Source of the DNA: Candidatus Woesearchaeota archaeon B3_Woes
GTDB taxonomy: Archaea; Nanobdellota; Nanobdellia; Woesearchaeales; B3-WOES
Reading direction: 5' to 3'
Assembly (NCBI GenBank): GCA_005222965.1
Contig: NJBG01000001.1
Coordinates: 394,323 to 435,060 of the forward strand
DNA: 40,738 nt
Position numbers and translations under genes: made by a program
The notes under the pieces: model-generated
What the model saw: only the letters and a program-made list of their open reading frames with translations
Databases searched by the model: none
What the model was told of the DNA's origin: nothing
Part shown: piece by piece, positions 4,255 to 24,981 of the stretch
Numbering within the stretch: position 1 is the stretch's first letter
How the letters are laid out: each line of letters opens with the position of its first letter

Positions 4255-4255
4255 A

Positions 4256-6196
4256 ATGAATATTATATTTGTTAATAATAAAAAATATATTAAGAAAATT
4301 CTTAAGAAAAAAATAAATAAAGAGTATTTGTTTATTGCATTTAATGATGAAATTGGTAAATTATTAAAAAACAAAGGCCTCCATTGTAAAAAACTTGAGG
4401 AATATTCTACAAAAGAAGATTTGAACAAAAAAATTATTGATTGGATTAAAGAATTTCCAAATCAAAGAATTAATAATAAAAACATTAAAGAACATTTTAC
4501 ATATAAGAACATATCTATCTGGTGGTTAGCAGAATTTTTTCTTTTTGGAACAGGCATATATTTTGAAGCGTATCAAGATGTATTATTTAGATTTGAAAAT
4601 ATAAAAAGGATTATTGAATATGAAAAACCAAAAAAGGTTATTTATATTGACGATAAAAGCCTTGAGTCAAAACTGATATATAAAATATGCAATTTATATA
4701 ATATAAAAATAGTTACCTTAAAAGTAAAACACATTGTCAATAAAAAAGAAGTTATTAGTTATTTAAAAAGAAATGGAATTATCATATATAAATTTTTAAG
4801 ATATTTACTAAGAAAAGTTTTTTGGCATATCTTATCTTTATTTGATATTAGAAAAAGGGGTAATAATAATATATTAATATTTACGGAAAGTCAATGGGGC
4901 AATTTATATGATAATGGAAAGAATATTATTGATGATCTAAGATTCCACAACATCTTAAAAGAGATCAAAAAAAGAAAAGACATGTCTGTTGTTGTAATAG
5001 ATAATCCTATTGGATCAAAATTAAGATTAGAACATTTTACAAAAAGGATAAATCGTTTTTCAAAAAATCCACCATTAGAATCTTATATAAAGCTTAGTTC
5101 ATTTATAGGTGCTATTTTTGACAAAAGAAAGATTAAAAAAGAGTATGAACAAGTAAAAAAGGATATACAATACCTTTATGAGGGAATTGATTTTAAGGAA
5201 TTTTTTAAGCCAAAATTTGATTTCTTTTTTAATAGGTATATTTATGAAACAATTCTTTATCATAATGCAATCGAAAATGCGATAGATAAAGAGAAACCTT
5301 CAATATTAGTTGTATCCAGTGAAGCGAACCCCCCTCAAAGAAGTGCAATATCTTTAGGTCATATGAAAGGGATTAGATCTGTTTCTATTCAACATGGTGC
5401 AGTAGGAATTCATAGTGAATTTATAAACAACAAAAAAGATATTTGCCCTACAGAATTTAGTTCCCCTCCTTATCTCCCTTTACCAAATTATCTTTGTATT
5501 TATGGTAATTTTTATAAAAAATTTTTCCTGAAATCTGGAGGGTATAATAATAAACAATTGATTATAACAGGAAACCAAAAATATGATTGTGTAACTAAAG
5601 ATATTATGTCATTAAATAAATTTGATTTAAAAAAGAAATTTAATTTAGAAAAGCATAAAAAAATTGTTCTTTTTTTCAGTAAACCATACAGCAATTATGA
5701 AGAAGGGAGCAGATTTTTAAATGAAGTGTATGGTGCTTTGAAAAATATTAAAAATATTCAAATAATGGTAAAAATACATCCTAATGAATTTAACATAGGC
5801 ATTCATAAAAAAATAATGTTAGAGAAAAATATTAAAAATGCTCTAATTTTTAAAAAAGAAGATATTTTTGAGTTAGGATTTTGTTCCGATGTTGTGATTA
5901 GTTATGGTTCAACAGTTGTAATGGACATGGCAGTTGTTAAAAAACCCATAGTACTATTTGATCCAATCAAAAAAGATGATACTTATTGTATAGAATATGC
6001 AAAGATTAAAGCAGGTGTTATGACACATAACAAACAACAATTACATGAAAAAGTTAAAAACGTTCTTTTTGATGAAAATAGTGCTTTAAAAATGGTGAAA
6101 GATCAACAAAGATTTGCTATAAAGGAGTATATGTATAGATTAGACTCTAATGCTTCTCAAAGAATTGTAGAAGGATTATCTAAGCTAATTAAGTAG
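4256..6196 (+). CDS. Surface carbohydrate biosynthesis protein with C-terminal TagF/capsule-synthase-like GT-B domain (candidate CMP-nonulosonate or CDP-polyol transferase)
   Basis: SIQHG, ITGNQKYD, VKIHPNE, SDVVISYGSTVVMD, ASQRIV. ATG 4256 lies just after the upstream stop. Confidence 0.6.
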   Translation: MNIIFVNNKKYIKKILKKKINKEYLFIAFNDEIGKLLKNKGLHCKKLEEYSTKEDLNKKIIDWIKEFPNQRINNKNIKEHFTYKNISIWWLAEFFLFGTGIYFEAYQDVLFRFENIKRIIEYEKPKKVIYIDDKSLESKLIYKICNLYNIKIVTLKVKHIVNKKEVISYLKRNGIIIYKFLRYLLRKVFWHILSLFDIRKRGNNNILIFTESQWGNLYDNGKNIIDDLRFHNILKEIKKRKDMSVVVIDNPIGSKLRLEHFTKRINRFSKNPPLESYIKLSSFIGAIFDKRKIKKEYEQVKKDIQYLYEGIDFKEFFKPKFDFFFNRYIYETILYHNAIENAIDKEKPSILVVSSEANPPQRSAISLGHMKGIRSVSIQHGAVGIHSEFINNKKDICPTEFSSPPYLPLPNYLCIYGNFYKKFFLKSGGYNNKQLIITGNQKYDCVTKDIMSLNKFDLKKKFNLEKHKKIVLFFSKPYSNYEEGSRFLNEVYGALKNIKNIQIMVKIHPNEFNIGIHKKIMLEKNIKNALIFKKEDIFELGFCSDVVISYGSTVVMDMAVVKKPIVLFDPIKKDDTYCIEYAKIKAGVMTHNKQQLHEKVKNVLFDENSALKMVKDQQRFAIKEYMYRLDSNASQRIVEGLSKLIK

Positions 6197-6271: not shown

Positions 6272-6748
6272 ATGAGGGGTTTAGATAAAACAGATTGTAT
6301 AATTTTGGATACATTACAAAAGAATTGTAGATGTTCTTTAACAAATATAGCTAAAGAAGTAAATCTTTCTATAGATTCTGTTAAAAAAAGGATAAAAAAG
6401 ATGGAAAAAAACAAGATTTTTCATCCAACAATTCAATTAAGACCAAGAAACTTTGGATTTGTTAATATTATCAATACAAGAATTAGGTTAAAAAACCACA
6501 CAAAAGAAGAAAAAAATAGATTCATAAAACATTTAGAGAAAAATCCTAGAATAACAGAGATATTTAGTATGAGTGGAGAAGAAGATTTGTCAATAGTTGT
6601 TGTATCTAAAAATGCAGCTGACTTAGATAATATAATTTCTGAAATAAAAAATAAATTTGGAAATATTATATATTCGTGGAACGATTCAACTACCCTGAAA
6701 GTATATAAATTTGAAAGTTATGATATGGGAAAAATGATGGGTTTTTAA
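6272..6748 (+). CDS. Lrp/AsnC family transcriptional regulator
   Basis: LDKTDCIILDTLQKNCRCSLTNIAKEVNLS...VKKRIKKME HTH; C-terminal RAM domain (MSGEEDL). Confidence 0.93.
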   Translation: MRGLDKTDCIILDTLQKNCRCSLTNIAKEVNLSIDSVKKRIKKMEKNKIFHPTIQLRPRNFGFVNIINTRIRLKNHTKEEKNRFIKHLEKNPRITEIFSMSGEEDLSIVVVSKNAADLDNIISEIKNKFGNIIYSWNDSTTLKVYKFESYDMGKMMGF

Positions 6749-6771
6749 GATTAGGGGCAAATAAAACTAAA

Positions 6772-7104
6772 ATGAATATAGTAGGAATTGATATTGAAGA
6801 CATTTCTAGGTTCAAAAAAATCCCGTTTGATAGGAATAAATCTTTTTACAATAAAATTTTTACAAATAAAGAAATAGAATACTGTAAAAAGAAATCAAAT
6901 CCTTCTCAACATTTTGCTGTCAGATTTTGTGCAAAAGAAGCTTTTATTAAAGCAATTAATGAAAAAATAAATGATTATAAATTAATTGAAGTTTTGATTA
7001 AAGGGAACAAACCATTTATCAAATGGAAAAATGTGAATTCATCATTGTCTCTTAGTCATGATAAAGACAAAGCTATTGCTTGTGTTTTAATTGAAAAAAA
7101 TTAA
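6772..7104 (+). CDS. acpS: Holo-ACP synthase (4'-phosphopantetheinyl transferase)
   Basis: GIDIEDISRF, FAVRFCAKEAFIKA, LSLSHD; 110 aa AcpS-type size. Confidence 0.92.
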   Translation: MNIVGIDIEDISRFKKIPFDRNKSFYNKIFTNKEIEYCKKKSNPSQHFAVRFCAKEAFIKAINEKINDYKLIEVLIKGNKPFIKWKNVNSSLSLSHDKDKAIACVLIEKN

Positions 7105-7115
7105 AAGGTATACTT

Positions 7116-7742
7116 ATGAAAAATATAAATTCAAAGAAACTCTTGCCCATAAATATGAATAGTATTATTGAAGGTCATATGGTTATTATTAAACCCATCT
7201 CAAAAAAAGAAATAAATAAAACTTACCTTTCGTGGTTAAACGATTCACAAATAAACAAATATTTAGAGGTGAGGCATAACAAACAAACAATTAATGGAAT
7301 ATTTGATTATGTTAATAGTCATAGATCTAGGGAAAATAGTGAAGTATTTGCCATTTTCACTAAAAAAGGCATTCATATTGGAAATATAGGGGTCATTTAT
7401 GATAAAGACAACAAATATGTAGAGTATGGGATTATGATTGGTAACAAAAAAGCACAAATGTTAGGTCTTGGTGGAGAAGCAACCATACTTATGTTTGAAT
7501 TTCTTTTTAAGAATAAGGGATTTAGAAAGATATTTAATGGAGTCATATCTAAAAATGAATCATCATGGAAGCTGTTTGAATCCATTGGGTCTACACGAGA
7601 AGGAATTTTAAGAGGGCAGTGTATCTGTTCTTCAAAAAAACCGTGTGATGTTTATCTTTATGGTATTTTAAGAAAAGAGTGGTTAAATAGTCGTAAAAAA
7701 TATCTTAACATATTAAAAAACATTAAAATTAAAAATGGATAG
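7116..7742 (+). CDS. GNAT N-acyltransferase (RimJ/RimL/PseH-like)
   Basis: YLSWLND, HIGNIG, GIMIGNKKAQMLGLG, N..S..LFESIG..REG, DVYLYGIL. Confidence 0.82.
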   Translation: MKNINSKKLLPINMNSIIEGHMVIIKPISKKEINKTYLSWLNDSQINKYLEVRHNKQTINGIFDYVNSHRSRENSEVFAIFTKKGIHIGNIGVIYDKDNKYVEYGIMIGNKKAQMLGLGGEATILMFEFLFKNKGFRKIFNGVISKNESSWKLFESIGSTREGILRGQCICSSKKPCDVYLYGILRKEWLNSRKKYLNILKNIKIKNG

Positions 7743-8034
7743 AAGTGAAAAAATATTAAAAGCTATATATGATGCAATTGATGAAGTTAATGATCAACTT
7801 CCAAAAGAACAAAGGTTATTAAAAAATAAAAATACAACTTTGTTTGGAAAATTAGATTCTCTTGGATTAGTAAACTTTATTATATTAGTAGAACAAAATA
7901 TAGAAAATTTGTTTAATAAAACAATAAATCTAAATAATGAAAAAACTTTATCAGGAGAACAAAGTCCACTAACAAACGTAAAAGCCCTTTTAGATTATAT
8001 AAGTTCAGATTTAGAGGAAAAACATAATGACTAA
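7735..8034 (+). CDS. Acyl carrier protein (ACP1)
   Basis: 99 aa; LFGKLDSLGLVNFI..VE with DSL phosphopantetheine site (Ser42, codon 7858-7860); near acpS and directly before FkbH. Confidence 0.88.
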   Translation: MDRSEKILKAIYDAIDEVNDQLPKEQRLLKNKNTTLFGKLDSLGLVNFIILVEQNIENLFNKTINLNNEKTLSGEQSPLTNVKALLDYISSDLEEKHND

Positions 8035-9703
8035 GAAAAAATGTAAGGGTTTGCTTGTATCAGATTTTAATATACAAAATCTAGCAGGATATCTTAAAGG
8101 AGAAAATGATTCATTAATAATTGATGTAGAGGTTGCTCCTTATGATCAAGTTATACAAACTTTAATGCAATACAATAATTCAACAGAAAACAAAAAAGAT
8201 ATGATAATAGTATGGACCCAGCCAGAAAGTATCATTACGTCTTTTAAAGAAATTATTGAGTTTGAAAAGGCTTCTTTAAAAAAAATCATTAAAGAAGTTG
8301 ATGATTATTCTTCTATTTTAATAGAAGCCAGTAAAAAAACAAAAACAATGTTTGTTCCTTTGTGGATTGTTCCTTCTTATAATAGGGGGCATGGTATGAT
8401 TGATATAAAAAATGAGTTTGGTATATCAAATGTATTGAGGCATATGAATATGAGGCTTATTGAAAATTTAAAAAACAATTCAAATATATTTATTTTAGAT
8501 AGTCAAAGATGGATAAGTCTTGTGGGAAAGCAAGCATTTAGTTCTAAATTATATTATATGGGTAAAATACCTTTTAATAATGATGTTTTCAAGGAAGCAT
8601 CAAAAGATATAAAATCTGCTCTTGATGGGATAAATGGATTTGCAAGAAAATTAATAGTTGTTGACTTGGATGATACTTTATGGGGAGGCATAGTGGGTGA
8701 TGTTGGATGGGAAAATCTTAAATTAGGTGGTCATGATCCTCATGGAGAATCCTTTGTTGATTTCCAAAATGCTTTGAAATCTTTTTCAAAAAGAGGTATA
8801 ATTCTTGGTATTGTAAGTAAAAACGAAGAAAATATAGCTATTGAAGCTATAAAAAAACATCCAGAGATGGTTTTAAAATTAGATGATTTTGCTGGTTGGA
8901 AGATAAATTGGCAAGATAAAGCAAAAAATATTATGGAATTAACTTCTGAACTGAATTTAGGACTTCAATCAGTCGTTTTTATTGATGATAATCCTGTAGA
9001 ACGAGCTCGTGTTAGAGAGGCTCTTCCTGATGTGTTTGTTCCTGAATGGCCTGAAGACAAGATGTTGTACAAAAGCTTTCTGCTCAATCTTCGTTGTTTT
9101 GATGCTCCTCTCTTAAGTGAAGAAGATGTTAAAAGAACAAAAATGTATGTTGCAGAAAGAAAAAGAGAAAACATGAAAGAATCTTTTATATCAATTGATA
9201 AATGGCTAAAAAGTATAGATATGCGTATTTCTGTAAATGAGCTAAGTAAAGAAAATATTCAGAGAACTACTCAACTTATTAACAAAACTAATCAAATGAA
9301 TCTCACTACAAGGAGAATGACCGAATCAGAACTTTCAGATTGGGTAAAACAAGAAAACAACAAACTTTTGACATTTAGTGTATCTGATAAATTTGGTGAT
9401 TCTGGATTAACAGGTATAATAAGCATTGAAATTGAAAAGGATGTTGGAAAAATAGTAGATTTTGTACTAAGTTGCAGAGTTCTTGGGAGAAAAGTAGAAG
9501 AAACTATGTTACATCAATTAATTAAATATGCAAAAGATATGGGTTTAAAAGAAATCAAAGCAAAATACATCCCTACAGAAAAAAATAAACCTTGTTTAGG
9601 TTTTTGGAAGAAATCTGGATTTGATTATAATGAAAAAAAGAACACATTTAAATGGAAAATAGATAAAGATTTTCCTTTACCAAATTGTATAAAAATTGTA
9701 TAA
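8027..9703 (+). CDS. FkbH-like HAD-IIIC protein (glyceryl-ACP forming phosphatase/transferase)
   Basis: VDLDDTLWGGIVGD (DxDxT), SKN, FIDDNPVER, KTNQMNLTT, DKFGDSG, LSCRVLGR with conserved Cys. Confidence 0.93.
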   Translation: MTKKKCKGLLVSDFNIQNLAGYLKGENDSLIIDVEVAPYDQVIQTLMQYNNSTENKKDMIIVWTQPESIITSFKEIIEFEKASLKKIIKEVDDYSSILIEASKKTKTMFVPLWIVPSYNRGHGMIDIKNEFGISNVLRHMNMRLIENLKNNSNIFILDSQRWISLVGKQAFSSKLYYMGKIPFNNDVFKEASKDIKSALDGINGFARKLIVVDLDDTLWGGIVGDVGWENLKLGGHDPHGESFVDFQNALKSFSKRGIILGIVSKNEENIAIEAIKKHPEMVLKLDDFAGWKINWQDKAKNIMELTSELNLGLQSVVFIDDNPVERARVREALPDVFVPEWPEDKMLYKSFLLNLRCFDAPLLSEEDVKRTKMYVAERKRENMKESFISIDKWLKSIDMRISVNELSKENIQRTTQLINKTNQMNLTTRRMTESELSDWVKQENNKLLTFSVSDKFGDSGLTGIISIEIEKDVGKIVDFVLSCRVLGRKVEETMLHQLIKYAKDMGLKEIKAKYIPTEKNKPCLGFWKKSGFDYNEKKNTFKWKIDKDFPLPNCIKIV

Positions 9704-9712
9704 GAGGGAAAA

Positions 9713-11404
9713 ATGAAAAATAATTTACCTAATAATTTTGTTGAAGGAGTAACTAATAGTGTTCAATTTAATATAACCCAAAAGTTAGTTGATAAATTTG
9801 TTGAATTAACTGGAGATTCAAGTTCACTTCATACAGACAAGGATTTTGGAGACAAATCAATGTATGATAATAAAGTGGTTCATGGGATGTTACCATTAAT
9901 TTTTATAGCCGAGTTAGAAAAATTATACCCAAAAGAATATTCTTGTATTTTTAAGGAGATATCTGCAAGATTCTTAAAGCCTATTTTTTTGAATGATAAA
10001 CTATCATTAGTATCTGAGATATCTGAAATAAATGAAAAAGAAAACCAAATTAGAGTTGAATATATTCTAAAAAAGATTGGATCAGAATCTGTTTTGACAA
10101 CAGGCTATTTTAAAATTAAATATAAAAAGACTAATGGATCTAAAGAATTGCTTGAAAAAAATATTAAAAAAGATTCTAAAAAAGGATTAGTTCTTGATTC
10201 TTTAAAAGAAGAGACCATAACTTTTGAGAACATAGAAAAAGGGGATAAAAAAAGTTTTAATTTTAAAGTTAGTGAAAAAGATTTATTATCTACTTATAAT
10301 ATTCTATTAAAAAATACAAATTATGATACTTGGTCTGGGAAAAATGTTTCAAAAAATTTAATTGTAAGTTGTCTATTTTCTACTTTTGTAGGTATGTGTA
10401 TTCCAGGAAGACATGCAACATTTACTGATTTTAAAATAAATTTTGAAAACGATGTTGAATTGAATAAAAAATATAAATTTTTAGGTAAAGTTAGTTTTAA
10501 ATCAAGTTCTACTTCCATCATTGTGGAAAATATTTCAATAAGTCAAAATAATGGAGAAAGAGTAATTGCATCAGGAAAAATAAATGTTAAAGTTAATGAC
10601 CCTCAAATAGAAATGCTTTCTCTTGAATCTCTTAAAAAAGAAGGATTAGATTTAGAATTAAAAGACAAAGTTGTATTAATAACAGGTGCAAGTTCTGGAA
10701 TAGGTCAAACAACAGCTAAATTGTTTTCTTTATATGGTACAAAAGTTATTATAAATTACTTTAAAGGAAAAGATTCTGCAGAAAGAATTGTAAAAGAAAT
10801 TATAAAAAATAAAGGGGATGCAATTGCTATTAAGGCTGATATAAGAGACATAAAACAAGTTAAAAAGATGGTGAATACTGCTTGTAAAAAATATGGTGAT
10901 ATCCATATTTTAGTTAATAATGCAGTAAAAGGATTTTATCCAAAATCATTTACAGATCTTAATTGGGAAGACGTTCAAGGAGAGATGGATGTTACTTTAA
11001 AAGGAACATTTAATTGTTGTCAGGAAATAATTCCTTTAATGTTAAAAAATAAAAGTGGAAAAATAATTAATATGTTAACAGTTGCAACAGAATCTCCTCC
11101 TGCAAATCAAGCAAAATATGTTATTGCAAAATCGGCTTTAATAGGTCTTACTAGAAGTCTTGCTGTAGATTTAGCTCCTAGCAATATACAGGTTAACATG
11201 GTATCTCCAAGTATTGTGAAAACAAATCTAACAAAACACGTTTCAAATATCTTTTTAGATAGATTAAAAAATGAAACACCTATGAAAAGAAATGCTACTC
11301 CTGTTGATGTTGCAAAGGCAATCATCTTTTTATCATCTTCACTTGCACCATATACTACAGGTCAAAAAATAATGGTAACAGGAGGTAATCCTCCTTTTCT
11401 TTAA
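9713..11404 (+). CDS. Fusion: MaoC hot-dog dehydratase + degenerate second hot-dog domain + FabG-like SDR reductase
   Basis: N-term FVELTGDSSSLH...VVHGML...ARFLKP; middle FSTFVGMCIPG; C-term ITGASSGIG, NNA, YVIAK, TGQKIMVTGG. Confidence 0.85.
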   Translation: MKNNLPNNFVEGVTNSVQFNITQKLVDKFVELTGDSSSLHTDKDFGDKSMYDNKVVHGMLPLIFIAELEKLYPKEYSCIFKEISARFLKPIFLNDKLSLVSEISEINEKENQIRVEYILKKIGSESVLTTGYFKIKYKKTNGSKELLEKNIKKDSKKGLVLDSLKEETITFENIEKGDKKSFNFKVSEKDLLSTYNILLKNTNYDTWSGKNVSKNLIVSCLFSTFVGMCIPGRHATFTDFKINFENDVELNKKYKFLGKVSFKSSSTSIIVENISISQNNGERVIASGKINVKVNDPQIEMLSLESLKKEGLDLELKDKVVLITGASSGIGQTTAKLFSLYGTKVIINYFKGKDSAERIVKEIIKNKGDAIAIKADIRDIKQVKKMVNTACKKYGDIHILVNNAVKGFYPKSFTDLNWEDVQGEMDVTLKGTFNCCQEIIPLMLKNKSGKIINMLTVATESPPANQAKYVIAKSALIGLTRSLAVDLAPSNIQVNMVSPSIVKTNLTKHVSNIFLDRLKNETPMKRNATPVDVAKAIIFLSSSLAPYTTGQKIMVTGGNPPFL

Positions 11405-11423
11405 TTAAATAAAAAATATTAAA

Positions 11424-12248
11424 ATGGTCAAAGATCCAAAATTATATGAATCAAATGGAAAATTAATTTATCGTTCTGATTTTGTCAGAGCATTAAAGAA
11501 ATTAGGTATTAAAAAAGGGGATGTTGTTTTTGTTCATTCCAGTCTTGGTGTATTTGGAAAACCACCTTCATTTGAGAGGAGTTGGATTTTAGAAAATTTA
11601 ATTGATGTATTAAAAGAAAGTGTAGGTAAAGAAGGCACTTTAATCGTACCGACATTTAGTTATAGTTTCTGCAAAGGAGAAGTTTATGATAAGGATAAAA
11701 CATTATCAACCATTGGAATATTACCAGAGTTTTTTAGAAATCTGCCAGATGTAGTTAGAACAAACCACCCAATATTTTCTGTTGGAATCTGGGGCAAAAA
11801 CAAAGATTATTATTTAGATATAAGTAAAGATTCTTTTGGTAAAAATTCTATATTTGGAAAGCTACATAAAAACAACGCAAAACTAATACTTTTTGGTGCA
11901 CCTTTTGAAAGCTCAACATTTAATTATTATGTTGAACAAAGTTATGGTATTCCATATAGGTATATGAAAACATTTAAGGGCAAAATAAGAAAGAAAGGCA
12001 TAGAGTATGAAGATAAATGTACTTATTTTGTTAAATACTTAAACAAAAATGTAGTTGCAGATAAAAAAAGATTTGAAAATCATCTAAGGAAAAAAGGTTT
12101 AATCAATGATGTTAAAGTTGGTAATGGGAATATATTAATGGTTGAATTAAAAAAATGGTATGAAGAAGGTTTTAAAGTTTTAAATAAAGATATTTTTTTC
12201 TTTTTAAAAGAAAAACCTAATTTAAAAAATATTAAGATTATAAAATGA
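11424..12248 (+). CDS. AAC(3)/Antibiotic_NAT family N-acyltransferase
   Basis: LGIKKGDVVFVHSSL, GTLIVPTFSYSF, GILPEFFR, RTNHPIFSV, SFGKNSIF, IPYRYMKTF. Confidence 0.88.
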   Translation: MVKDPKLYESNGKLIYRSDFVRALKKLGIKKGDVVFVHSSLGVFGKPPSFERSWILENLIDVLKESVGKEGTLIVPTFSYSFCKGEVYDKDKTLSTIGILPEFFRNLPDVVRTNHPIFSVGIWGKNKDYYLDISKDSFGKNSIFGKLHKNNAKLILFGAPFESSTFNYYVEQSYGIPYRYMKTFKGKIRKKGIEYEDKCTYFVKYLNKNVVADKKRFENHLRKKGLINDVKVGNGNILMVELKKWYEEGFKVLNKDIFFFLKEKPNLKNIKIIK

Positions 12249-12979
12249 AAATAGTAGCAATAATACAAGCAAGGATGGGTTCATCGCGGCTTCCTGGAAA
12301 AATGATGAAGTTAATAAATAACAAACCCATCATCTGGCATGTAATAAATAATGTTAAAACTGTAAAATCTATTAATAGTATTGTTATAGCAACCAGTACT
12401 GAAAAGAATAATGATATTTTGATTGAAGAAGTTAAAAAATATGGAGTTGATGTTTTTGTAGGAAGTGAAAATGATGTTTTAGATAGATATTACCAAGCTG
12501 CAAAAACGTTTAAAGCAGATGTCATTGTAAGAATAACTGCTGATTGCCCCTTAATTGATTCTGAAGTTGTTGAAAGAGTCATAGAGGTATTTAAAGAAAA
12601 TAAATGCGATTATGCCTCAAATACTCTTCCTCCTTCTTATCCTGATGGTCTTGATGTAGAGGTATTTTCTTTTGATACATTAGAAAAAACATGGAAAGAA
12701 GCAAAACAAGAATCAGAAAGAGAACATGTAACATCTTATATGAAGGTAGGGAAAAATGAAAGCAAATTCAAAAAAATTAACATAAAAAACAAAGAGGATT
12801 TATCACATATCAGACTAACTCTAGATTACGAAGAAGATTTTAATTTAATAAAAGAAATAATTGAGAGAATAAATAAAAACCAAATACATCTAAGTGATAT
12901 TTTAGAATTAATTAAAAAAGATCCAAGATTATTAAACATAAATAATAAATTTGAAAGAAACAATGGTGAAAAAAGATAA
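12245..12979 (+). CDS. SpsF-like cytidylyltransferase (CMP-nonulosonate synthetase family)
   Basis: IIQARMGSSRLPGK, GSENDVLDRY, VRITADCP, YPDGLDVEVF, EREHVT, RLTLDYEED. Confidence 0.88.
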   Translation: MKIVAIIQARMGSSRLPGKMMKLINNKPIIWHVINNVKTVKSINSIVIATSTEKNNDILIEEVKKYGVDVFVGSENDVLDRYYQAAKTFKADVIVRITADCPLIDSEVVERVIEVFKENKCDYASNTLPPSYPDGLDVEVFSFDTLEKTWKEAKQESEREHVTSYMKVGKNESKFKKINIKNKEDLSHIRLTLDYEEDFNLIKEIIERINKNQIHLSDILELIKKDPRLLNINNKFERNNGEKR

Positions 12980-13961: not shown

Positions 13962-14686
13962 AAGGAGTAATTTTAGCAGGAGGAAATGGATCTAGGTTAT
14001 TTCCTCTAACGAAAACAACAAATAAGCATCTTTTACCAATCTACAATAAACAGATGATTCTATATCCTTTAGAGACTCTGAAAAAATCAGGTATAACTAA
14101 TGTTTTGATTATAAGTGGTCCAGGACACGCAGGTCAATTTCTTGAATTATTAGGTTCTGGTTATGATGAGGGTCTTGATATAAAATATGCTATACAAGAA
14201 AAAGCACTAGGAATTGCCCACGCAATATGGGTTGCTGCAAGGGATTTTGCAAAAGGAGAAGAAATAGTGGTGATATTAGGGGACAATATCTTAGAAGAAA
14301 GTATAGAAGAGGATATTAAATCTTTTAAAGGAGGAGCCAAGATTTTTCTAAAGAAAGTTAAGAACCCAAAAGAGTTCGGGGTTGCTGAAATTGAAGATGG
14401 GCGTATAAAAAGTATTGAAGAAAAACCCAAGAATCCGAAAAGCGATCTTGCTGTTGTTGGTGTATATATCTATGATAAACACGTCTATGAATATTCAGAA
14501 AAGTTAGCACCTTCTGAAAGAAATGAAGTAGAGGTAACTGATTTAAATAATGTATATTTAGAAAAAGGGCAATTGGATTTTAAAGAATTAAAAGGCAATT
14601 GGTTAGATGCAGGAACAATAGAAGGTTTATTTGAAGCTTCTGAAATCGAAAGAGGTTATAAAAAAAATGGTAATAAACAAAAATAA
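13958..14686 (+). CDS. rmlA: Glucose-1-phosphate thymidylyltransferase, short (SpsI-like) form
   Basis: MKGVILAGGNGSRLFPLT, NKHLLPIYNKQMI, LGDN, EEKP, WLDAGT; GGAGG SD at 13946-13950; ATGA overlap with rmlB. Confidence 0.9.
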   Translation: MKGVILAGGNGSRLFPLTKTTNKHLLPIYNKQMILYPLETLKKSGITNVLIISGPGHAGQFLELLGSGYDEGLDIKYAIQEKALGIAHAIWVAARDFAKGEEIVVILGDNILEESIEEDIKSFKGGAKIFLKKVKNPKEFGVAEIEDGRIKSIEEKPKNPKSDLAVVGVYIYDKHVYEYSEKLAPSERNEVEVTDLNNVYLEKGQLDFKELKGNWLDAGTIEGLFEASEIERGYKKNGNKQK

Positions 14687-15440
14687 ATCCACAACTAAGA
14701 AAGTAGTTATTATAACAGGAGGGGCTGGGCAGCTCGGTTCTTCCATATGTTGTCATTTTGATGAATTAAATAATAAAGTTTTTATGGCAGATTTAGATGA
14801 GAATATATGTAAAAAAAGAATATCTAAGTTAGGTTTAAAAAACACTTTCCCTCTTGAATTAGATGTTACAAACATAAAATCTATAGAATCTGCATTTAAA
14901 AAAATAATTAATAAATTTGGAAGAATTGATATACTAGTAAATAACGCAGGAATATCTGCTTTTACTTCTTTTGAAAAAAGAACTTTTGAAGAATTTGATA
15001 AAGTTATGAAAGTTAATCTTTATGGTACTTTTTTTTGTTCTCAAAGAGCATTATATTATATGGAAAAACAAAAAAAAGGTTGTATTGTTAACATAGGTTC
15101 TGTTTATGGTGTAAAAAGTCCAGATCCAAGGATTTATGGAAATTCTGGTAGAAACAGTCCTGAAGTGTATGGAGCTAGTAAAGCAGGAGTCATACAAATG
15201 ACAAGATATCTTGCAGTACATGTAAAATGTAAAAAAATAAGAATAAATTGTGTTAGTCCTGGTGGAATTTTCAACAATCAAGATAAAAAATTTGTTAAGA
15301 ATTATATCAACAAAACACCAATGAAGAAAATGGCGAATGAAGATGAAATTGCTAAAACAATTGTTTTTCTTTGTTCTGATAACTCTTCATATATAACTGG
15401 ACAAAATATAATTGCAGACGGGGGATTTACAATATGGTAA
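14667..15440 (+). CDS. SDR oxidoreductase, PtmA-like (nonulosonate-pathway associated)
   Basis: ITGGAGQLG, NNAG, NIGSVYG..SPD.RIY, YGASKAGVIQMTRYLA, NCVSPGGI. Confidence 0.82.
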   Translation: MVINKNKSTTKKVVIITGGAGQLGSSICCHFDELNNKVFMADLDENICKKRISKLGLKNTFPLELDVTNIKSIESAFKKIINKFGRIDILVNNAGISAFTSFEKRTFEEFDKVMKVNLYGTFFCSQRALYYMEKQKKGCIVNIGSVYGVKSPDPRIYGNSGRNSPEVYGASKAGVIQMTRYLAVHVKCKKIRINCVSPGGIFNNQDKKFVKNYINKTPMKKMANEDEIAKTIVFLCSDNSSYITGQNIIADGGFTIW

Positions 15441-16276: not shown

Positions 16277-16277
16277 T

Positions 16278-17066: not shown

Positions 17067-17387
17067 ATGAAAGTTCATCATATTGGGATTATTGTAAAAG
17101 AATTTAAACCACTTCAAGATTTGTTTGTTGGGATGGGTGGTAAAGTTATTTGTAAAGATATAGCCAAAAGATATAATGCTATATGTGTATTTATTGATAT
17201 GGGTAACGTTATTATTGAATTAGTAAAAAGCAAAAATAAGAATCAACCCAAAGAGGGATTAAATCATATCGCTTTTTATGGGAAAGGTAAATATGATGGT
17301 GCTATGCCTAATATGAAAGTTGATTTTAAAATAAAAAATAATATTATAATAGAAGAAGTTGAATTTGAAAAAAATGAAAGAAATTAA
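17067..17387 (+). CDS. VOC family protein (methylmalonyl-CoA epimerase/glyoxalase-like)
   Basis: HHIGIIV, IELV, GLNHIAF, IIEEVE; GGAGG SD upstream. Confidence 0.75.
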   Translation: MKVHHIGIIVKEFKPLQDLFVGMGGKVICKDIAKRYNAICVFIDMGNVIIELVKSKNKNQPKEGLNHIAFYGKGKYDGAMPNMKVDFKIKNNIIIEEVEFEKNERN

Positions 17388-18120
17388 TCTTATACCCTGG
17401 GATTCAAAAATTCTTAATAAAAAGGTTTTTGAAATAAAATATCAGAAAGGTTTACCACTTAAAACATTAGCTAAGCTTGATAAAAGTTGTGAAAAACAAG
17501 ATGCATATTATGTATTTATTAAGGTGGATAATGATGATATTAAAACCATACATTATCTTGAGACTTTAGGATTCAATTACATAGAATTTCAGTTAAGAAT
17601 AGAAAAAAGATTAGTAAAACCATATACTCTCCCACATTATAAAAACTTTTATCTAAAAGAAATTTTTAAATCAGATGTAGATGATATTAAAAATATTTGT
17701 AAGATCGCAAAAACCACCTTTACAACTGACAGATTTTATATTGATCCTAAAATAAACAAAGATTTTTCAGGAAAAAGATATATGAATTGGATTTTAAATT
17801 CTCTTGAAGACAATACATATAAGATATATAAATATTGTTTTAAATCAAATGATGAAATTGCGGCTTTTTTAATGGTGAAAAAAGACAAAGATAAAATTTA
17901 CATAGCATTGGGTGGAACTAATCCAAAATTTAAAGGAAGTGGTATTTATTTAAGTTTACTTATCGAATATCTTAATCTATCTTATTTGAATAAGAATAAA
18001 AATATATATACAACTATAACTGCGCTTAATAAAGACGTTGTTGATTTTTATAATCTCTTAGAATTTAAAATAATTGATAGAAAAGTAGTTTTAAGAAAGG
18101 TGTACGAACATGAAAGATGA
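17374..18120 (+). CDS. GNAT acyltransferase, WecD/RffC-like
   Basis: PWDSKILNKKVFEI, LETLGF, RFYIDP, RYMNWI, PKFKGSGI, N...VDFYNLLEF. Confidence 0.75.
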   Translation: MKEINLIPWDSKILNKKVFEIKYQKGLPLKTLAKLDKSCEKQDAYYVFIKVDNDDIKTIHYLETLGFNYIEFQLRIEKRLVKPYTLPHYKNFYLKEIFKSDVDDIKNICKIAKTTFTTDRFYIDPKINKDFSGKRYMNWILNSLEDNTYKIYKYCFKSNDEIAAFLMVKKDKDKIYIALGGTNPKFKGSGIYLSLLIEYLNLSYLNKNKNIYTTITALNKDVVDFYNLLEFKIIDRKVVLRKVYEHER

Positions 18121-18400
18121 TGAAATTATAAAAGCAATATACAATGCTATTGATGATGTTAATGAGCTACTTCCAAAAGAAGAGAAATTACGCAAAGAAC
18201 CAAACACACCTATATTTGATGTATTGAGTTCTCTTTTAATATTAAATTTTATTGTAAAACTAGAAGAAAATATAAAAGAAGTTTTTAATGTAACAATAAA
18301 TTTGGCTGATGAATTAATAGTATTAAAAAAAAATAACCCTCTTAAAAATGTTCAAAATCTTAAAAACCATATCTCTTCAAATTTAAAAAACAACCAATAA
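18110..18400 (+). CDS. Acyl carrier protein paralogue (ACP2) with SSL in place of DSL
   Basis: Aligns by eye to ACP1 (KAIYxAIDxVNxxLPKE...NFIxxxExNI...TINL); Ser41 matches ACP1 Ser42. Confidence 0.78.
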   Translation: MKDDEIIKAIYNAIDDVNELLPKEEKLRKEPNTPIFDVLSSLLILNFIVKLEENIKEVFNVTINLADELIVLKKNNPLKNVQNLKNHISSNLKNNQ

Positions 18401-18401
18401 A

Positions 18402-19277
18402 ATGAATTTTAAAAAAATTAAAAATAAATTTGGATTTTATCAAATAGAACCCAAACCGACTAAAGAAGAATTAAAAGAGTTTTACCAAAAGAAATACTAT
18501 CAAGAAAGTAAAGGAAGTTTTGAAGTGAAATATAATAAAGCAGAACAGGTATATTTTAGAAATGAAAGTATAACATTTGAAAGAATATGGGAAATGTTTG
18601 GAAAAAGCAAGAATATTAAATTATTAGATGTTGGTTGTGGAGAAGGATATTTTATGAAATATTTTGTAGAACAAGGTTATAAAGCAGAAGGCTTTGATTT
18701 TTCTAATTGGGGTATTACCCACCATAATAAAAAGTTGTTAAAATATTTTGAGCAAGGTGATATTTATGAAATTTTAGACAAAAAAATATCCAAAGAAAAG
18801 AAATATGATTTGATCAATCTTGGGAATATATTAGAACATGTTTTAGAACCATTAGAATTATTAGATAAATTAAAGAAATTAATGAATAAAGAATCTTTGC
18901 TCAGAATTAAAGTACCAAATGATTACTCAGATTTTCAAATGTTATTATTGAAACAAAAAAAGATAAAAGAATCAGCGTGGTTTACTCCTCCAGATCATTT
19001 AAGTTATTTTAATTTTAAATCTTTAAGAAAAACATTAAAAGCAAAGGGTTTTAGGGTGTATAAAATGTTAGCAGATTTTCCAAATGAGATTTATCTTTCT
19101 AATGAATATTCTAATTATTTCAAAACACGAAGTAAAGGGAAAGAATGTCACAACTCAAGGGTTTTGATTACAAACTTTTTGTTTAATACTGGTGTTGATA
19201 AATATATAAAATATATGGAATCGGCCGGAAATTGTGGAATTGGAAGAACTATAACAGCTTATGTGAGTTTAAAATGA
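18402..19277 (+). CDS. Class I SAM-dependent methyltransferase
   Basis: LLDVGCGEG, NILEHV, IKVPND, PPDHLSYF. Confidence 0.88.
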   Translation: MNFKKIKNKFGFYQIEPKPTKEELKEFYQKKYYQESKGSFEVKYNKAEQVYFRNESITFERIWEMFGKSKNIKLLDVGCGEGYFMKYFVEQGYKAEGFDFSNWGITHHNKKLLKYFEQGDIYEILDKKISKEKKYDLINLGNILEHVLEPLELLDKLKKLMNKESLLRIKVPNDYSDFQMLLLKQKKIKESAWFTPPDHLSYFNFKSLRKTLKAKGFRVYKMLADFPNEIYLSNEYSNYFKTRSKGKECHNSRVLITNFLFNTGVDKYIKYMESAGNCGIGRTITAYVSLK

Positions 19278-20467
19278 AAAAACCAGCAATAGAAGGTGGG
19301 AATCCTATTAGAAAAGAATATTTAATATTCGGAAAACCAGATATAGGAAAAGAAGAGATAAATGAAGTAGTTAATACTCTAAAATCAGGATGGTTAAGCA
19401 CTGGACCTAAAGTAAAACGTTTAGAAGATAGATTTAAAAAATATGTTGGATGCAAACACGCAATAGCTGTAAACTCATGTACTGCTGCTCTTCATTTATC
19501 TTTATTATGTAATGGTGTTGGAAAAGATGATGAAGTAATTGTAACTCCTATGACTTTTGCAGCCACTGTTAACGTCATTGAACATGTTGGTGCTAAACCT
19601 GTTTTTGTTGATATTGAAAAAGATTCATATAATATTGATGCAGACAAAATAAAAAAAGCAATTACATCAAAAACTAAAGCTATAATCCTTGTTCATTTCG
19701 CAGGACTACCTTGTGATATGCTAAAAGTAAACAAAATTGCAAGAGAACACAAGTTAATAGTAATAGAGGATGCTGCTCATGCAATTGGATCGGAATATAA
19801 TTCTAAAAAAATCGGATCAGAAGGCAATCCAACTTGTTTCAGCTTTTATGCTACTAAAAATTTAACAGCAGGAGAAGGCGGAATGATTGCTTTAAATGAT
19901 GGTAAATTAGCAGAAAAGATGAGGATATATTCACTTCATGGTTTAAGTAAACATGCTTGGCAAAGATACACTAAAGATTGTAAAAAGACTTATGAGATTG
20001 TATACCCTGGTTATAAATACAACATGCAAGATATCAATGCAGCAATAGCAATTCATCAATTGGAAAAGATTGATAAATTTAATTCTATTCGAAAAAAGTA
20101 TGCAAAATTATATTTCAAAGCATTTAAAAATTATGACCTTATAGAACTTCCTCCAGATAAGAAAGAAAGAAAGAACGCATGGCATTTGTTTCCAATTTTG
20201 CTTAAACTTGATAAATTAAAAATATCAAGAAATGATTTTATAAACGCATTGGATAAAGAAAACATAGGATCCGGTATTCATTTTCTTTCAATACATGAAC
20301 AACCTTATTACAAAAAGAAATATAAATTAAAGAAGAATATTCTAAAAAGAGCAGAGTATGTTTCTAGTAGAACTGCCTCTTTACCCTTACAAACATCTAT
20401 GAACAAAAAAGATGTTTTGGATGTAGTAAAAGCAGTAAAAAGGATTTTAGATTATTATAAAATATAA
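19274..20467 (+). CDS. DegT/DnrJ family sugar aminotransferase (SpsC/ArnB/PseC-like)
   Basis: NSCTAALHL, IEDAAHAIG, FSFYATKNLTAGEGG, GYKYNMQD; ATG 19274 overlaps the upstream stop. Confidence 0.9.
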   Translation: MKKPAIEGGNPIRKEYLIFGKPDIGKEEINEVVNTLKSGWLSTGPKVKRLEDRFKKYVGCKHAIAVNSCTAALHLSLLCNGVGKDDEVIVTPMTFAATVNVIEHVGAKPVFVDIEKDSYNIDADKIKKAITSKTKAIILVHFAGLPCDMLKVNKIAREHKLIVIEDAAHAIGSEYNSKKIGSEGNPTCFSFYATKNLTAGEGGMIALNDGKLAEKMRIYSLHGLSKHAWQRYTKDCKKTYEIVYPGYKYNMQDINAAIAIHQLEKIDKFNSIRKKYAKLYFKAFKNYDLIELPPDKKERKNAWHLFPILLKLDKLKISRNDFINALDKENIGSGIHFLSIHEQPYYKKKYKLKKNILKRAEYVSSRTASLPLQTSMNKKDVLDVVKAVKRILDYYKI

Positions 20468-20477
20468 AGAGGGAAAA

Positions 20478-21788
20478 ATGAAGAACAAAAAAGGAAAATT
20501 AATGTGGAACAAGGCAAAAGAATTAATTCCTGGAGGAACACAGCTACTGAGTAAAAGAGCAGAAAGGTTTTTGCCTGATAACTGGCCATCTTATTATAAA
20601 AAAGCAAAAGGTGTTAAAGTTGAAGATTTAGATGGAAATAACTATATTGACATGAGTATAATGGGGATTGGTAGTTGTGTGTTAGGTTATTCTGATGATG
20701 ATGTTAACAATGCTGTAAAAAAAGTTATTGATGAAGGTTCAATGTGCACTCTAAATTCTATTGAAGAAGTTGAATTAGCGGAATTATTATTAAAAATACA
20801 TCCCTGGGCTCAACAAGTTAGATATGCTAGAACAGGTGGAGAAGCAATGGCTATTGCTATAAGGATAGCTAGGGCTGCTTCAAAAAAGGAAAAAGTTGCT
20901 TTTTGTGGTTATCATGGTTGGCAAGATTGGTACTTATCATCTAATCTAAACAATAAAAAAAATCTGGATGGGCATTTGCTACCTGGGCTAAAACCAACTG
21001 GTGTTCCAAGAGGACTTTTAAATACAACTATTCCTTTTGAATATAATAAAATTGAGCAATTAAAAAAAATTGTAAAAAATAATGACATAGGAATAATTGT
21101 AATTGAACCTTTTAGACATCAAAACCCAAAGAATGGTTTTATTGAAAAAGTGAGAGAAATTGCGGATAAGAACAATATTGTGCTTATTTTTGACGAAATA
21201 AGTTCTGGTTGGAGGAATAATTTAGGAGGCATACACTTAGTTTACGATGTAATTCCTGATATTGTTGTTTATGCTAAAGCAATGAGTAATGGTTATCCAA
21301 TGGCTACAATTTTAGGTAAGAAAAAAGTAATGGATGTAGCACAAGATAGTTTTATTAGTAGTACATATTGGACAGAACGTATTGGTCCTACAGCAGCAAT
21401 AGCTACAATTAAAAAAATGAAAGAGAAAAAAGTTTTTGATCATATTAGTAAAATAGGTAACATGATTGGTGAAGGGTGGAAAAAATTAGCTAAAAAACAT
21501 AATCTTGATATATCAGTTAGAGGTCCAAATTCTTTAATCACTTTTTCATTTAATTATGAAAATGCAAATGAATTAAGAACATTATTCACCCAAGAGATGC
21601 TTAGAAATGGTTTTTTGGCTTCGTTGTGTGTTTATGTGTCATACAGTCATAAAAAAGAACATGTAGAAAAATACCTAAATAGTGTAGATGATGTTTTTGG
21701 TTTAATTAAATGCGCTTTAGAAAAAAACAATGTAAAAAATATGTTAGAAGGGCCAATAGCGAGCGATGATTTTAAAAGATTAACGTAA
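20478..21788 (+). CDS. Class III aminotransferase (glutamate-1-semialdehyde aminomutase-like, glycan-cluster type)
   Basis: IPGGTQLLSKR, DLDGNNYID, ARTGGEA, CGYHGWQDW, FDEISSGWR, AKAMSNGYP, ISSTYW. Confidence 0.87.
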   Translation: MKNKKGKLMWNKAKELIPGGTQLLSKRAERFLPDNWPSYYKKAKGVKVEDLDGNNYIDMSIMGIGSCVLGYSDDDVNNAVKKVIDEGSMCTLNSIEEVELAELLLKIHPWAQQVRYARTGGEAMAIAIRIARAASKKEKVAFCGYHGWQDWYLSSNLNNKKNLDGHLLPGLKPTGVPRGLLNTTIPFEYNKIEQLKKIVKNNDIGIIVIEPFRHQNPKNGFIEKVREIADKNNIVLIFDEISSGWRNNLGGIHLVYDVIPDIVVYAKAMSNGYPMATILGKKKVMDVAQDSFISSTYWTERIGPTAAIATIKKMKEKKVFDHISKIGNMIGEGWKKLAKKHNLDISVRGPNSLITFSFNYENANELRTLFTQEMLRNGFLASLCVYVSYSHKKEHVEKYLNSVDDVFGLIKCALEKNNVKNMLEGPIASDDFKRLT

Positions 21789-21876
21789 TAAGACAAACTA
21801 TTTGAATTTTATATATAATTCTTTAATTGATAAACTTTAAAAAGAGATATAAATTATAATTAAATAAATAGTTAAA

Positions 21877-23346: not shown

Positions 23347-23352
23347 ATAAAA

Positions 23353-24912: not shown

Positions 24913-24928
24913 TTACTAATCCATAAGC

Positions 24929-24977
24929 TTTATATAACAATTATATGTAATTATATGTAATTAATATATATGAGGTG
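24929..24977 (+). promoter_or_regulatory. TATA box TTTATATA (24929-24936), tandem 10-bp repeat AATTATATGT x2.5 (24939-24963) and SD GAGGTG (24972-24977) upstream of the RHH gene
   Basis: Read directly from sequence. Confidence 0.55.
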
Positions 24978-24981
24978 CAAA

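Follow-up and report, generated by a model that had tools for sequence, protein, structure and literature searches.

A carrier-protein-dependent acylation cassette, probably decorating a surface glycan, in a DPANN archaeon of the Woesearchaeota type

The window analysed here is a 40,738-nt stretch at C1:394323-435060 in the genome of Candidatus Woesearchaeota archaeon B3_Woes (1.02 Mb in 4 contigs, rated 96% complete), and the element under study is a cassette of six plus-strand genes within it. We conclude that the cassette probably serves to decorate a surface glycan with an acyl group, in a manner dependent on FkbH and a carrier. A more specific reading, to which we assign a probability of about 50%, is that it forms a self-sufficient carrier-dependent module that would convert glyceryl- through pyruvoyl- to lactyl-acyl carrier protein (ACP) and N-acylate an activated amino sugar. 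Taken by itself, lactyl as the identity of the acyl group falls slightly short of even odds. The six genes are as follows.

6772..7104, plus strand: AcpS-type (group I) 4'-phosphopantetheinyl transferase (PPTase), 110 aa; PF01648 at 67.3 bits (cut-off 25)
7116..7742, plus strand: GNAT1, an acyltransferase (Acetyltransf_3), 208 aa; PF13302 at 3.6e-12
7735..8034, plus strand: carrier protein 1, a divergent ACP, 99 aa; Ser42 in KLDSLGL; no Pfam match
8027..9703, plus strand: FkbH-like predicted glyceryl loader, 558 aa; TIGR01686 at 306.2 bits (cut-off 146.65); PF21211
9713..11404, plus strand: MaoC + SDR fusion, 563 aa; PF01575 over residues 16-116, PF13561/PF00106 over residues 319-558
11424..12248, plus strand: AAC(3)-fold (Antibiotic_NAT) N-acyltransferase, 274 aa; PF02522 at 129.3 bits (cut-off 25)

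An initial annotation, made from the letters of the DNA, had delineated these six open reading frames (ORFs) on the plus strand; its coordinates proved exact, and the domain matches agree with the identities first given. Between neighbouring genes there are overlaps of 4-8 nt or gaps of 9-19 nt, and the six are translationally coupled within a 40-kb glycan island. The plus-strand run extends beyond the cassette to at least position 20467, and the GC content of the window is 22-30% throughout, with no step at the cassette. The set had been described as a complete assembly line lacking a ketosynthase. The lack was borne out, with no ketosynthase among 41 scanned window ORFs and none in the genome by PF00109 and PF08541 (FabH-type) profile searches; the completeness was not, as a second GNAT and carrier pair lies about 5 kb downstream.

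The FkbH-like protein consists of an N-domain, a HAD-IIIC phosphatase domain and a C-terminal GNAT-like domain with Cys483, and also passes the HAD-IIIC model TIGR01681 (59.5 bits against a cut-off of 35.75). Residues D213, D215 and T217 (DLDDTLW) and S482, C483 and R484 were invariant across 20 sequences, and residues 10-365 matched BF1531 (PDB 3slr) at 9.3e-47. Use of 1,3-bisphosphoglycerate is the established reaction of the FkbH family, and the conserved cysteine is reportedly catalytic, from work on OzmB. Genes for PGK (393 bits) and GAPDH (218 bits) are adjacent in the genome; 1,3-bisphosphoglycerate is therefore made, and the FkbH substrate is available. Homologues are numerous, with at least 7152 at E<=1e-10 among 8000 scored candidates. 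The protein itself excluded, 118 of the 119 relatives listed shared 56-63% identity with it and the other, a partial protein, 86%; those bearing names among the matches listed were all bacterial (Omnitrophica, Anaerolineae, Scalindua, Nitrospirales and 'bacterium').

We compared the window with 80 genome loci, 10 loci from its own phylum and 31 metagenome loci (L numbers below); the Pfam scan of neighbouring ORFs covered 103 of the 152 prepared. A quick LG+G4 tree was built from 83 FkbH rows, many of them of unusual composition, with SH-aLRT alone as support, and rows matching fewer than 420 profile positions (L026, L051, L056, L066, L070, L105, L106 and L107) were dropped. The split of this tree into two halves appears strong, and its fine branching does not. 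The window protein nests in a clade of 31 bacteria (clade A; SH-aLRT 100%), with its nearest rows from Bacteroidota, Acidobacteriota and Omnitrophota at a top identity of 55%. The other 12 archaeal FkbH proteins (8 DPANN, 3 Asgard and 1 Thaumarchaeota) all fall in the other half (clade B), 10 of them in one 98% clade together with a sequence from the Candidate Phyla Radiation (CPR) and two other bacterial sequences. Judged by this tree, the window FkbH is of bacterial origin. The closest relative found, 84% identical, is in L110, a metagenome contig of 3991 bases with a GC content of 29%. A divergent carrier stands beside or near FkbH in 22 of the 31 clade-A bacterial loci, mostly directly upstream; in clade B, a PF00550-type ACP follows FkbH in 39 of 48 mostly bacterial loci and in all 11 DPANN and Asgard loci.

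The 99-aa protein upstream of FkbH in the window is a carrier protein, but a divergent one. An exhaustive search of a representative library was needed to find its relatives, 1666 at E<=1e-3 and 233 at E<=1e-10; a word-index search recovered only 2 proteins. Ser42 (LDSLG) was the sole invariant column in a 66-row carrier alignment. The profile of this alignment gave 21 PDB matches at E<=1, of which 20 were acyl or D-alanyl carriers and one a dynein chain, all of them weak (E 0.002-0.94), and phmmer with carrier 1 alone against the PDB gave a single irrelevant match (E 0.25). The AlphaFold2 (AF2) model of carrier 1 (pLDDT 89.4) has helices at residues 3-19, 42-60, 69-72 and 82-97, and Ser42 opens helix 42-60; as modelled, the protein forms a four-helix bundle with the D-S-L serine at the start of helix 2. 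Foldseek against the PDB placed carriers or carrier-containing complexes in nearly all top rows, none at E<=0.001. The second pair consists of the following genes.

17359..18120, plus strand: GNAT2, a GNAT-fold protein overlapping carrier 2 by 11 nt; PF00583 at E 0.0018, below cut-off
18110..18400, plus strand: carrier protein 2, a paralogue of carrier 1, 96 aa; serine kept (VLSSLL)

Carrier 2 shares 48% identity with carrier 1 over 92 aa (E 2e-27) and is itself a row of the alignment in which Ser42 is invariant. GNAT2 scored 0.97-0.98 (Atlas feature score) against GNAT clusters, with structure TM values of 0.83-0.91, and has no sequence similarity to GNAT1. The operon thus holds two pairs in the order GNAT then carrier. 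Two carrier copies also occur upstream of FkbH in L118 and three in L119 (5652-7974), the FkbH-proximal ones in tandem, so the window is not alone in having a duplicated carrier.

In the AF2 model of the fusion, two hotdog domains (about residues 14-139 and 179-294) are followed by a Rossmann SDR domain (about 320-563); PF01575 scored 46.3 bits (cut-off 27) and PF13561 191.9 bits. The N-terminal part aligned with MaoC-like, HTD2 and PhaJ structures of the PDB across the motif GDSSSLH, whose D35 and H40 aligned with the hydratase-2 type structures 1q6w, 3ir3 and 2b3m. These two residues, Y469, K473 and the glycine motif were invariant in 7 aligned fusions. Foldseek with the whole model returned SDR matches alone (FabG or ketoreductases) and was uninformative on the hotdog half. 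At 189.5 bits against the 297.75 of the FabG equivalog TIGR01830, the SDR half is not FabG itself. The same fusion lies 3' of FkbH in L004 and L018 (Omnitrophota), in L019, in the Flavobacteriales loci L029, L031 and L033, and in metagenome loci L110 and L116; a second MaoC-containing form, of 450-500 aa, was found in L005, L017, L022, L027, L030 and L079. Separate hotdog (~150 aa) and SDR (~250 aa) genes flank FkbH in DPANN loci L102, L103 and L104, in L139 and in several bacterial clade-B loci. Overall, a hotdog lies within 6 kb of FkbH in 7 of 31, 11 of 48 and 5 of 8 loci in the three locus groups. That a hotdog (with SDR) recurs beside FkbH in two distinct FkbH clades, whether as a fusion or as separate genes, argues that the two act jointly on the FkbH product.

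The host is a DPANN archaeon of Woesearchaeota type, as two markers on the window's contig establish. The small-subunit rRNA scored 1404.7 bits with the archaeal model against 1061.6 with the bacterial one, and archaeal elongation factor 2 (aEF-2) scored 1031.7 bits (cut-off 738); the 16 named proteins among the best 120 aEF-2 relatives, at 72-76% identity, comprise 14 from 'Candidatus Woesearchaeota archaeon' and 2 from 'Nanoarchaeota archaeon'. The initial annotation had called the organism a probable archaeon, which these markers bear out; the novelty is lower than it implied, because FkbH, carrier and fusion belong to a bacterial type with thousands of relatives.

It had also been suggested that the cassette carries its own acpS because the host has none, and this idea gained support. 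The AcpS protein passed TIGR00556 (72.9 bits against 45.35), marginally missed the equivalog TIGR00516 for acpS (52.6 against 59.8), and was the only PF01648 match in a profile search of the genome; similar searches of the genome found no FabD, and no PF00550 carrier at E<=1. We scored linkage as an AcpS homologue (phmmer) within 6 kb of FkbH. Such linkage was seen in 12 of 16 archaeal loci (the window, 8 of 8 DPANN clade-B and 3 of 3 Asgard loci) and in the single CPR locus, L074, against 0 of 74 other bacterial loci; bacterial L027 has a Sfp-type PPTase near FkbH by Pfam despite its negative phmmer result. No AcpS was found near FkbH in Thaumarchaeota L050, whose contig ends at FkbH, or within 6 kb in DPANN L105-L107, whose FkbH is weak or truncated. 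A sample of 401 genomes of the phylum, the window's own included, had FkbH above cut-off in 9, over several family codes, and a PPTase (PF01648) in 32. The PPTase was present in 8 of the 9 FkbH-positive genomes (G183 being the exception) and in 24 of the remaining 392; as related genomes are not independent, these are counts rather than a test. Genomes flagged as unpublished make up two of the 9 (G242, G359) and four of the 32 (G242, G359, G243, G321), and L108 and L109 derive from such genomes; the linkage pattern persists without them, at smaller counts.

Two predicted acyltransferases belong to the cassette proper. GNAT1 is a candidate acyl-ACP or acetyl-CoA N-acyltransferase with a weak resemblance to PseH (TIGR03585, 29.6 bits against 93.1); its single homologue in all loci examined stands directly 3' of the fusion in Omnitrophota L004 (3e-49). 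The AAC(3)-fold protein matched YokD (3.2e-17) and FrbF (7.5e-12) in the PDB, the latter of which reportedly acts on a CMP-linked amine. Because it scored 66.2 bits against the 270 of the NCBIfam AAC_3 equivalog NF033082, and far below the cut-offs of other AAC(3) models, it is not a resistance enzyme but a relative in fold alone. Its best match among the fetched loci is in DPANN L109 (6e-90; an unpublished genome). A predicted complex of this protein (5 rows) with carrier 1 (66 rows), made without controls, scored 0.20 against a mark of 0.32 and is evidence neither way.

The fold of the transferase beside the cassette varies between loci. A hexapeptide (LbH) transferase occurs in many clade-A loci and all three Asgard loci, GNAT transferases in L004, L005, L029, L031 and L033, and an AAC(3)-fold transferase in L021, L027, L065 (fused), L074, L105 and L109, of which CPR L074 and also L021, L027 and L109 have it next to FkbH and ACP; L018 has an MBOAT and a GDSL-like gene. 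Fusions and other pairings were also noted. A hexapeptide acyltransferase is fused to the FkbH N-terminus in L007, L020, L024 and L035, and in L065 the AAC(3)-fold domain is fused with FkbH. In L027 (3341-5500) one protein joins an AAC(3)-fold domain with a DUF4910/M28 aminopeptidase-like domain, and in L074 the corresponding genes lie close, with one methyltransferase gene between them. This pairing recalls Campylobacter jejuni Cj1295 and Cj1296/7; Cj1295 would be of the same family as the L074 M28/DUF4910 gene, and Cj1296/7 presumably has the AAC(3) fold. In Omnitrophota L018 (11328-14094), carrier, FkbH and fusion precede the MBOAT and GDSL-like gene, an order that resembles Dlt or alginate-acetylation logic, with the acyl group moved across the membrane.

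The genes of the island that bear on the acceptor sugar lie mainly downstream.

12245..12979, plus strand: CTP_transf_3 cytidylyltransferase (KdsB/PseF/NeuA-like), overlapping the AAC(3)-like gene by 4 nt; PF02348 at 117.5 bits
12951..16276, plus strand: RmlB, RmlA-like, PtmA-like SDR and NeuB-family synthase genes, for activated (amino)sugar supply
18402..21788, plus strand: Methyltransf_23, DegT (PseC/ArnB-like) aminotransferase and class-III aminotransferase genes, 3' of carrier 2

Three amine-sugar routes are encoded near the cassette: a GDP-mannose 4,6-dehydratase fragment with a DegT enzyme at the window start, which would fit perosamine; RmlA/RmlB with the PseC/ArnB-like DegT enzyme; and the NeuB-family synthase with the CTP_transf_3 cytidylyltransferase. 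Synteny favours the last, a nonulosonate (NulO) route, because the cytidylyltransferase adjoins the cassette in the window and in L110, where it stands directly 3' of the fusion (1e-136), and because NeuB and/or CTP_transf_3 lie near FkbH elsewhere (L019, L054, L111 and L130). The cytidylyltransferase is probably a CMP-nonulosonate synthetase; its NCBIfam matches were all below cut-offs. RmlB passed TIGR01181 (435.5 bits against 365.1), and the RmlA-like gene (TIGR01207, 234 against 360.65), the PtmA-like SDR (NF050062, 142.8 against 350) and the NeuB-family synthase (PF03102 at 245 bits; TIGR03569, 269.5 against 399.65) fell below their equivalog cut-offs. Of the expected nonulosonate set, a NeuB family domain, CTP_transf_3, dehydratases and DegT enzymes are present, with all NulO equivalogs below cut-offs. 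The genes at 18402..21788 possibly tailor the acyl unit and supply the sugar amine, and a B12-radical-SAM gene follows the class-III aminotransferase. Weak homologues of the methyltransferase lie near FkbH in DPANN L101, L104, L108 and L109 and in metagenome loci L113, L114 and L136; no orthology is claimed with the methyltransferase of CPR L074, the common part being a generic SAM-binding stretch alone (27% over 103 aa).

The lactyl route was put forward in the initial annotation and is the best supported of the readings weighed here. We infer every chemical step of the module, its lactyl product, its acceptor and the use of acyl-ACP by a transferase from family knowledge and gene linkage. 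AcpS would convert both small carriers to the holo form, and FkbH would dephosphorylate 1,3-bisphosphoglycerate and load D-glycerate as glyceryl-S-carrier. The catalytic hotdog of the fusion would dehydrate across C2/C3, the enol would tautomerise to pyruvoyl-S-carrier, and the SDR half would reduce this to lactyl-S-carrier. The soluble AAC(3)-fold enzyme and/or GNAT1 would then pass the acyl group to the free amine of a nucleotide-activated sugar, most likely a CMP-nonulosonate or, alternatively, a dTDP- or GDP-4-amino-6-deoxyhexose. A second acyl form, bearing O-methyl groups like that of C. jejuni, may arise through carrier 2, GNAT2 and the methyltransferase. 3-Hydroxybutyryl, which is common on such sugars, was considered as the acyl group and rejected, since profile searches of the genome found no ketosynthase, FabH or FabD (the thiolase family PF00108 was not searched) and the loader is FkbH.

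Several observations weigh against the lactyl module. Carrier 1 had no match to PF00550 at E<=1, that family was touched by 19 of the 66 carrier relatives, all weakly (best E 0.012), and the function of clade-A FkbH proteins and their carriers is read from sequence. In the fusion, the second hotdog has no Pfam match, the AF2 model is moderate (pLDDT 74.6, from 7 rows), and the usual catalytic serine of the SDR is a threonine in 3 of 7 proteins (window, L019 and L033); FabG-type SDRs normally reduce beta-keto, not alpha-keto groups. GNAT1 has a single homologue in the loci examined. L110 places the cytidylyltransferase immediately after the fusion and has no AAC(3)-like gene at that junction. 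This makes the gene an accessory at this position, gained by insertion in the window's lineage or lost from L110, and it may be an add-on with an acetyl-CoA job of its own. Finally, no NeuC/PseG/LegG-type hydrolase was seen among the scanned window ORFs and NeuB scored below its equivalog cut-off, so the nonulosonate pathway is incomplete or atypical.

Four other explanations were considered. The loading might be the same and the transferred group glyceroyl or O-methylglyceroyl, with the fusion oxidising, acting on another thioester, or editing or hydrolysing a mis-loaded carrier. N-glyceroyl and di-O-methylglyceroyl nonulosonates are documented natural products in the accessible text of two reports (PMC5378307, PMC3068675), and a Methyltransf_23 gene with weak homologues near FkbH elsewhere sits 3' of carrier 2. 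The fusion of L004 also weakly matches a 4HBT thioesterase (2.9e-5), and in many of the loci neither a hotdog nor an SDR gene lies within 6 kb of FkbH. We nevertheless find this explanation unlikely, if the least unlikely of the alternatives, given the hydratase-type D35/H40 pair in 7 of 7 fusions and the joint presence of hotdog and SDR beside FkbH in two clades. A little less likely again is that the AAC(3)-fold protein and GNAT1 serve the amino-sugar pathways as ordinary N-acetyltransferases using acetyl-CoA, with the carrier-bound acyl group delivered by GNAT2 or the C-terminal domain of FkbH, or to another acceptor. The absence of the AAC(3)-like gene from this spot in L110 and the PseH-like character of GNAT1 fit such a division of labour, as do the acetyltransferase names of all named solved relatives of the AAC(3)-fold protein and the lack, near the window cassette, of the hexapeptide type that is the commonest neighbour transferase in clade A. 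Yet an AAC(3)-fold gene adjoins FkbH and ACP in CPR L074 and in DPANN L109, L065 has such a domain fused with its FkbH, and the only homologue of GNAT1 directly follows the fusion in L004.

The acyl group could also be destined for an acceptor other than a sugar amine (a lipid, a protein or a polymer resembling teichoic acid), in the style of Dlt D-alanylation. D-alanyl carrier proteins are among the PDB matches of the carrier, the L018 cassette leads into an MBOAT and a GDSL-like gene, and the window encodes a Glyphos_transf protein (4232-6196), a TagD/RfaE-like cytidylyltransferase (26376-26846) and an LPG_synthase_TM protein (37341-38309). Against these stand the soluble N-acyltransferase folds of the cassette transferases, the coupling of the cassette to nucleotide-sugar and aminotransferase genes and the lack of an MBOAT among the scanned window ORFs, and we regard such an acceptor as improbable. 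Most knowledge of FkbH comes from polyketide and non-ribosomal peptide pathways, and 27 of the 29 publications listed for it concern secondary metabolites; a small diffusible metabolite as the product of this cassette is nonetheless very improbable, as the scanned window ORFs contain no ketosynthase, condensation or adenylation domain, the genome has no ketosynthase, and the neighbouring genes encode glycosyltransferases, a Wzx-type flippase and enzymes of nucleotide-sugar metabolism.

The window cluster looks like a mosaic, with a bacterial-type core and DPANN-type helpers. What is new in the lactyl module as we read it is a variant that combines known parts (loading by FkbH, editing by a dehydratase-reductase and N-acylation of an amino sugar); what sets it apart is its archaeal host without fatty-acid synthesis, its accompanying PPTase and its mosaic origin. 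According to the accessible text of one review, archaea lack ACP and ACP synthase save for a few that acquired them by transfer (PMC3533463). Judged by its gene content, the window appears to offer a clear example of biochemistry on phosphopantetheine carriers in an archaeon with no sign of fatty-acid synthesis. A wider and doubtful proposal is that DPANN, Asgard and CPR lineages repeatedly acquired FkbH-carrier cassettes with their own AcpS, as a portable system for decorating glycans and not lipids, of which the window would be a mosaic example making an N-lactyl nonulosonate. If this is true, a bacterial-type carrier, FkbH and fusion were here combined with an AcpS and an AAC(3)-fold transferase of DPANN type and with a duplicated carrier, and the product is an N-lactyl (perhaps also O-methylglyceroyl) nonulosonate, a modification not yet described in archaea. 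The AcpS that travels with archaeal and CPR cassettes would be a helper gene, carried along when the recipient lacks one. DPANN 'FabG/FabZ/ACP' genes taken for fatty-acid synthesis would then be, at least partly, glycan-acylation genes. DPANN FabG/FabI/FabZ genes have been interpreted as fatty-acid synthesis, in the part of one report available to us (PMC10936187), and we would caution against reading FabG/FabZ/ACP-like genes in DPANN as lipid synthesis.

For the installation of N-glyceroyl on nonulosonic acids, genetics alone exists, for C. jejuni, in the accessible text on that pathway (PMC3068675). The operon and the large FkbH family offer a compact set of soluble enzymes that could be reconstituted to settle the N-glyceroyl gene question. 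Within the literature searched, which did not extend to subscription journals, we found no publication on archaeal FkbH cassettes or on reconstituted FkbH-dependent sugar acylation.

Further genes of the island and of related loci deserve mention. Twenty-four nucleotides 5' of acpS, a possible operon regulator by its position is encoded.

6272..6748, plus strand: Lrp/AsnC-type regulator; PF13412 at 1e-12, PF13404 at 4.3e-12, PF01037 at 2.8e-8

A DUF692 / MbnB-TglH-ChrH (MNIO-like) gene (16236-17045; PF05114 at 6e-17, NCBIfam matches all below cut-offs) is flanked by NeuB and a glyoxalase-fold gene, and no obvious peptide substrate is encoded close to it. The glycan island contains three B12-binding radical-SAM genes (2827-4254, 21877-23346 and 38332-39819), and a similar gene stands beside the FkbH cassettes of CPR L074 and metagenome loci L114, L119, L134 and L136; these enzymes may C-methylate the sugar or the acyl unit. 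The run at 20478-29341 includes the class-III aminotransferase, weakly similar to GSA aminomutase, GntE and PbfA, genes of the phosphodiesterase and sulfatase families, a small cytidylyltransferase gene and a complete phosphonate-type ABC importer (PF12974 binding protein, ATPase and permease), which hints at phosphonate or phospho-alcohol decoration. A 625-aa ORF without a Pfam match (34492-36369, minus strand) is conserved in the DPANN loci L102 (2e-119) and L075 (3e-31), where the homologues adjoin FkbH cassettes. In L004, the Omnitrophota locus closest in architecture, a sulfotransferase gene (6688-7665) directly precedes the carrier gene and an ATP-sulfurylase fusion (14164-16344) lies nearby, and a sulfated C3 acyl group is possible there. 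Polysaccharide deacetylase genes (PF01522), often with a glyoxalase-fold gene, accompany the FkbH cassettes of L005, L006, L008, L010, L022, L027 and Asgard L036-L038, which suggests a logic of de-N-acetylation followed by re-acylation; the window has a glyoxalase-fold gene at 17067-17387, but no PF01522-like deacetylase.

Among known systems, the initial annotation had pointed to the Campylobacter flagellin glycan locus, and the accessible text of three reports upholds the parallel: in C. jejuni, cj1302 is an fkbH-domain gene (PMC7099621), Cj1299 is acpP2 (PMC6109747), and Cj1296/7 is an N-acetyltransferase in a pathway whose CMP-5-N-(2,3-di-O-methylglyceroyl)-pseudaminic acid is Cj1295-dependent (PMC3068675). 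Like the window, Cj1295-Cj1302 of strain NCTC 11168 thus combines fkbH, a dedicated ACP and an N-acetyltransferase-type gene, there inside a nonulosonate locus, and in its product a C3 acyl group derived from glycerate is N-linked by the time the sugar is CMP-activated, a likeness drawn from published descriptions. It differs in its bacterial host, in having glyceroyl and not lactyl, and in that no acpS, hotdog or SDR is named for it in the accessible text; the glyceroyl group and the missing mention of a hotdog or SDR count with the points against the lactyl module given above. C. jejuni also requires Cj1295, which is aminopeptidase-like, whereas the window has no homologue of the L074 M28/DUF4910 gene. 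Tannerella forsythia carries Pse5Am7Gra, and the genetic basis of its glyceroyl was 'a major challenge' in the available part of a 2017 report (PMC5378307). Other flagellin islands, as far as the accessible text describes them, have ACP/FabG/LuxC/LuxE sets of a different kind (PMC7874193, PMC4875605).

The DH-KR-FkbH-ACP loading modules of trans-acyltransferase polyketide synthases (PKS) have the four activities predicted for the window, those of FkbH loader, carrier, double-hotdog dehydratase and SDR-type ketoreductase. Examples with a lactate starter are bryostatin BryA and FR901464. Whereas those modules are parts of a PKS, the window has stand-alone proteins and one two-enzyme fusion, with no ketosynthase or downstream module, and its acyl group is proposed to go to an acyltransferase instead of a ketosynthase; its dehydratase is of the MaoC type (PF01575), not a PKS DH, and its carrier belongs to a divergent family. 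The proposed chemistry is the same, from 1,3-bisphosphoglycerate (1,3-BPG) through glyceryl-ACP to lactyl-ACP, and the accessible text of one paper states the use of 1,3-BPG by the FkbH family and writes the loading module as 1,3-BPG + ACP -> D-lactate-ACP (PMC7901079). The window cassette may work like a PKS lactyl module but is not a member of that class. With the FkbH/OzmB loaders (methoxymalonyl-ACP, tetronate) it shares TIGR01686, the HAD DxDxT motif and the conserved cysteine; their pathways continue by oxidation (FkbK/FkbI) or by tetronate formation in a PKS, whereas the window has a glycan operon with a dehydratase-reductase.

The AcpS-FkbH-ACP cassettes of DPANN, Asgard and CPR genomes (L074, L075, L100-L104, L036-L038, L108 and L109) resemble the window in that AcpS adjoins FkbH or lies within 6 kb of it, and some also have small hotdog, SDR, AAC(3)-fold or methyltransferase genes. 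They differ in that their FkbH falls into clade B and is followed by a PF00550-type ACP, whereas in the window FkbH, carrier and fusion are of bacterial type and the carrier lies upstream of FkbH.

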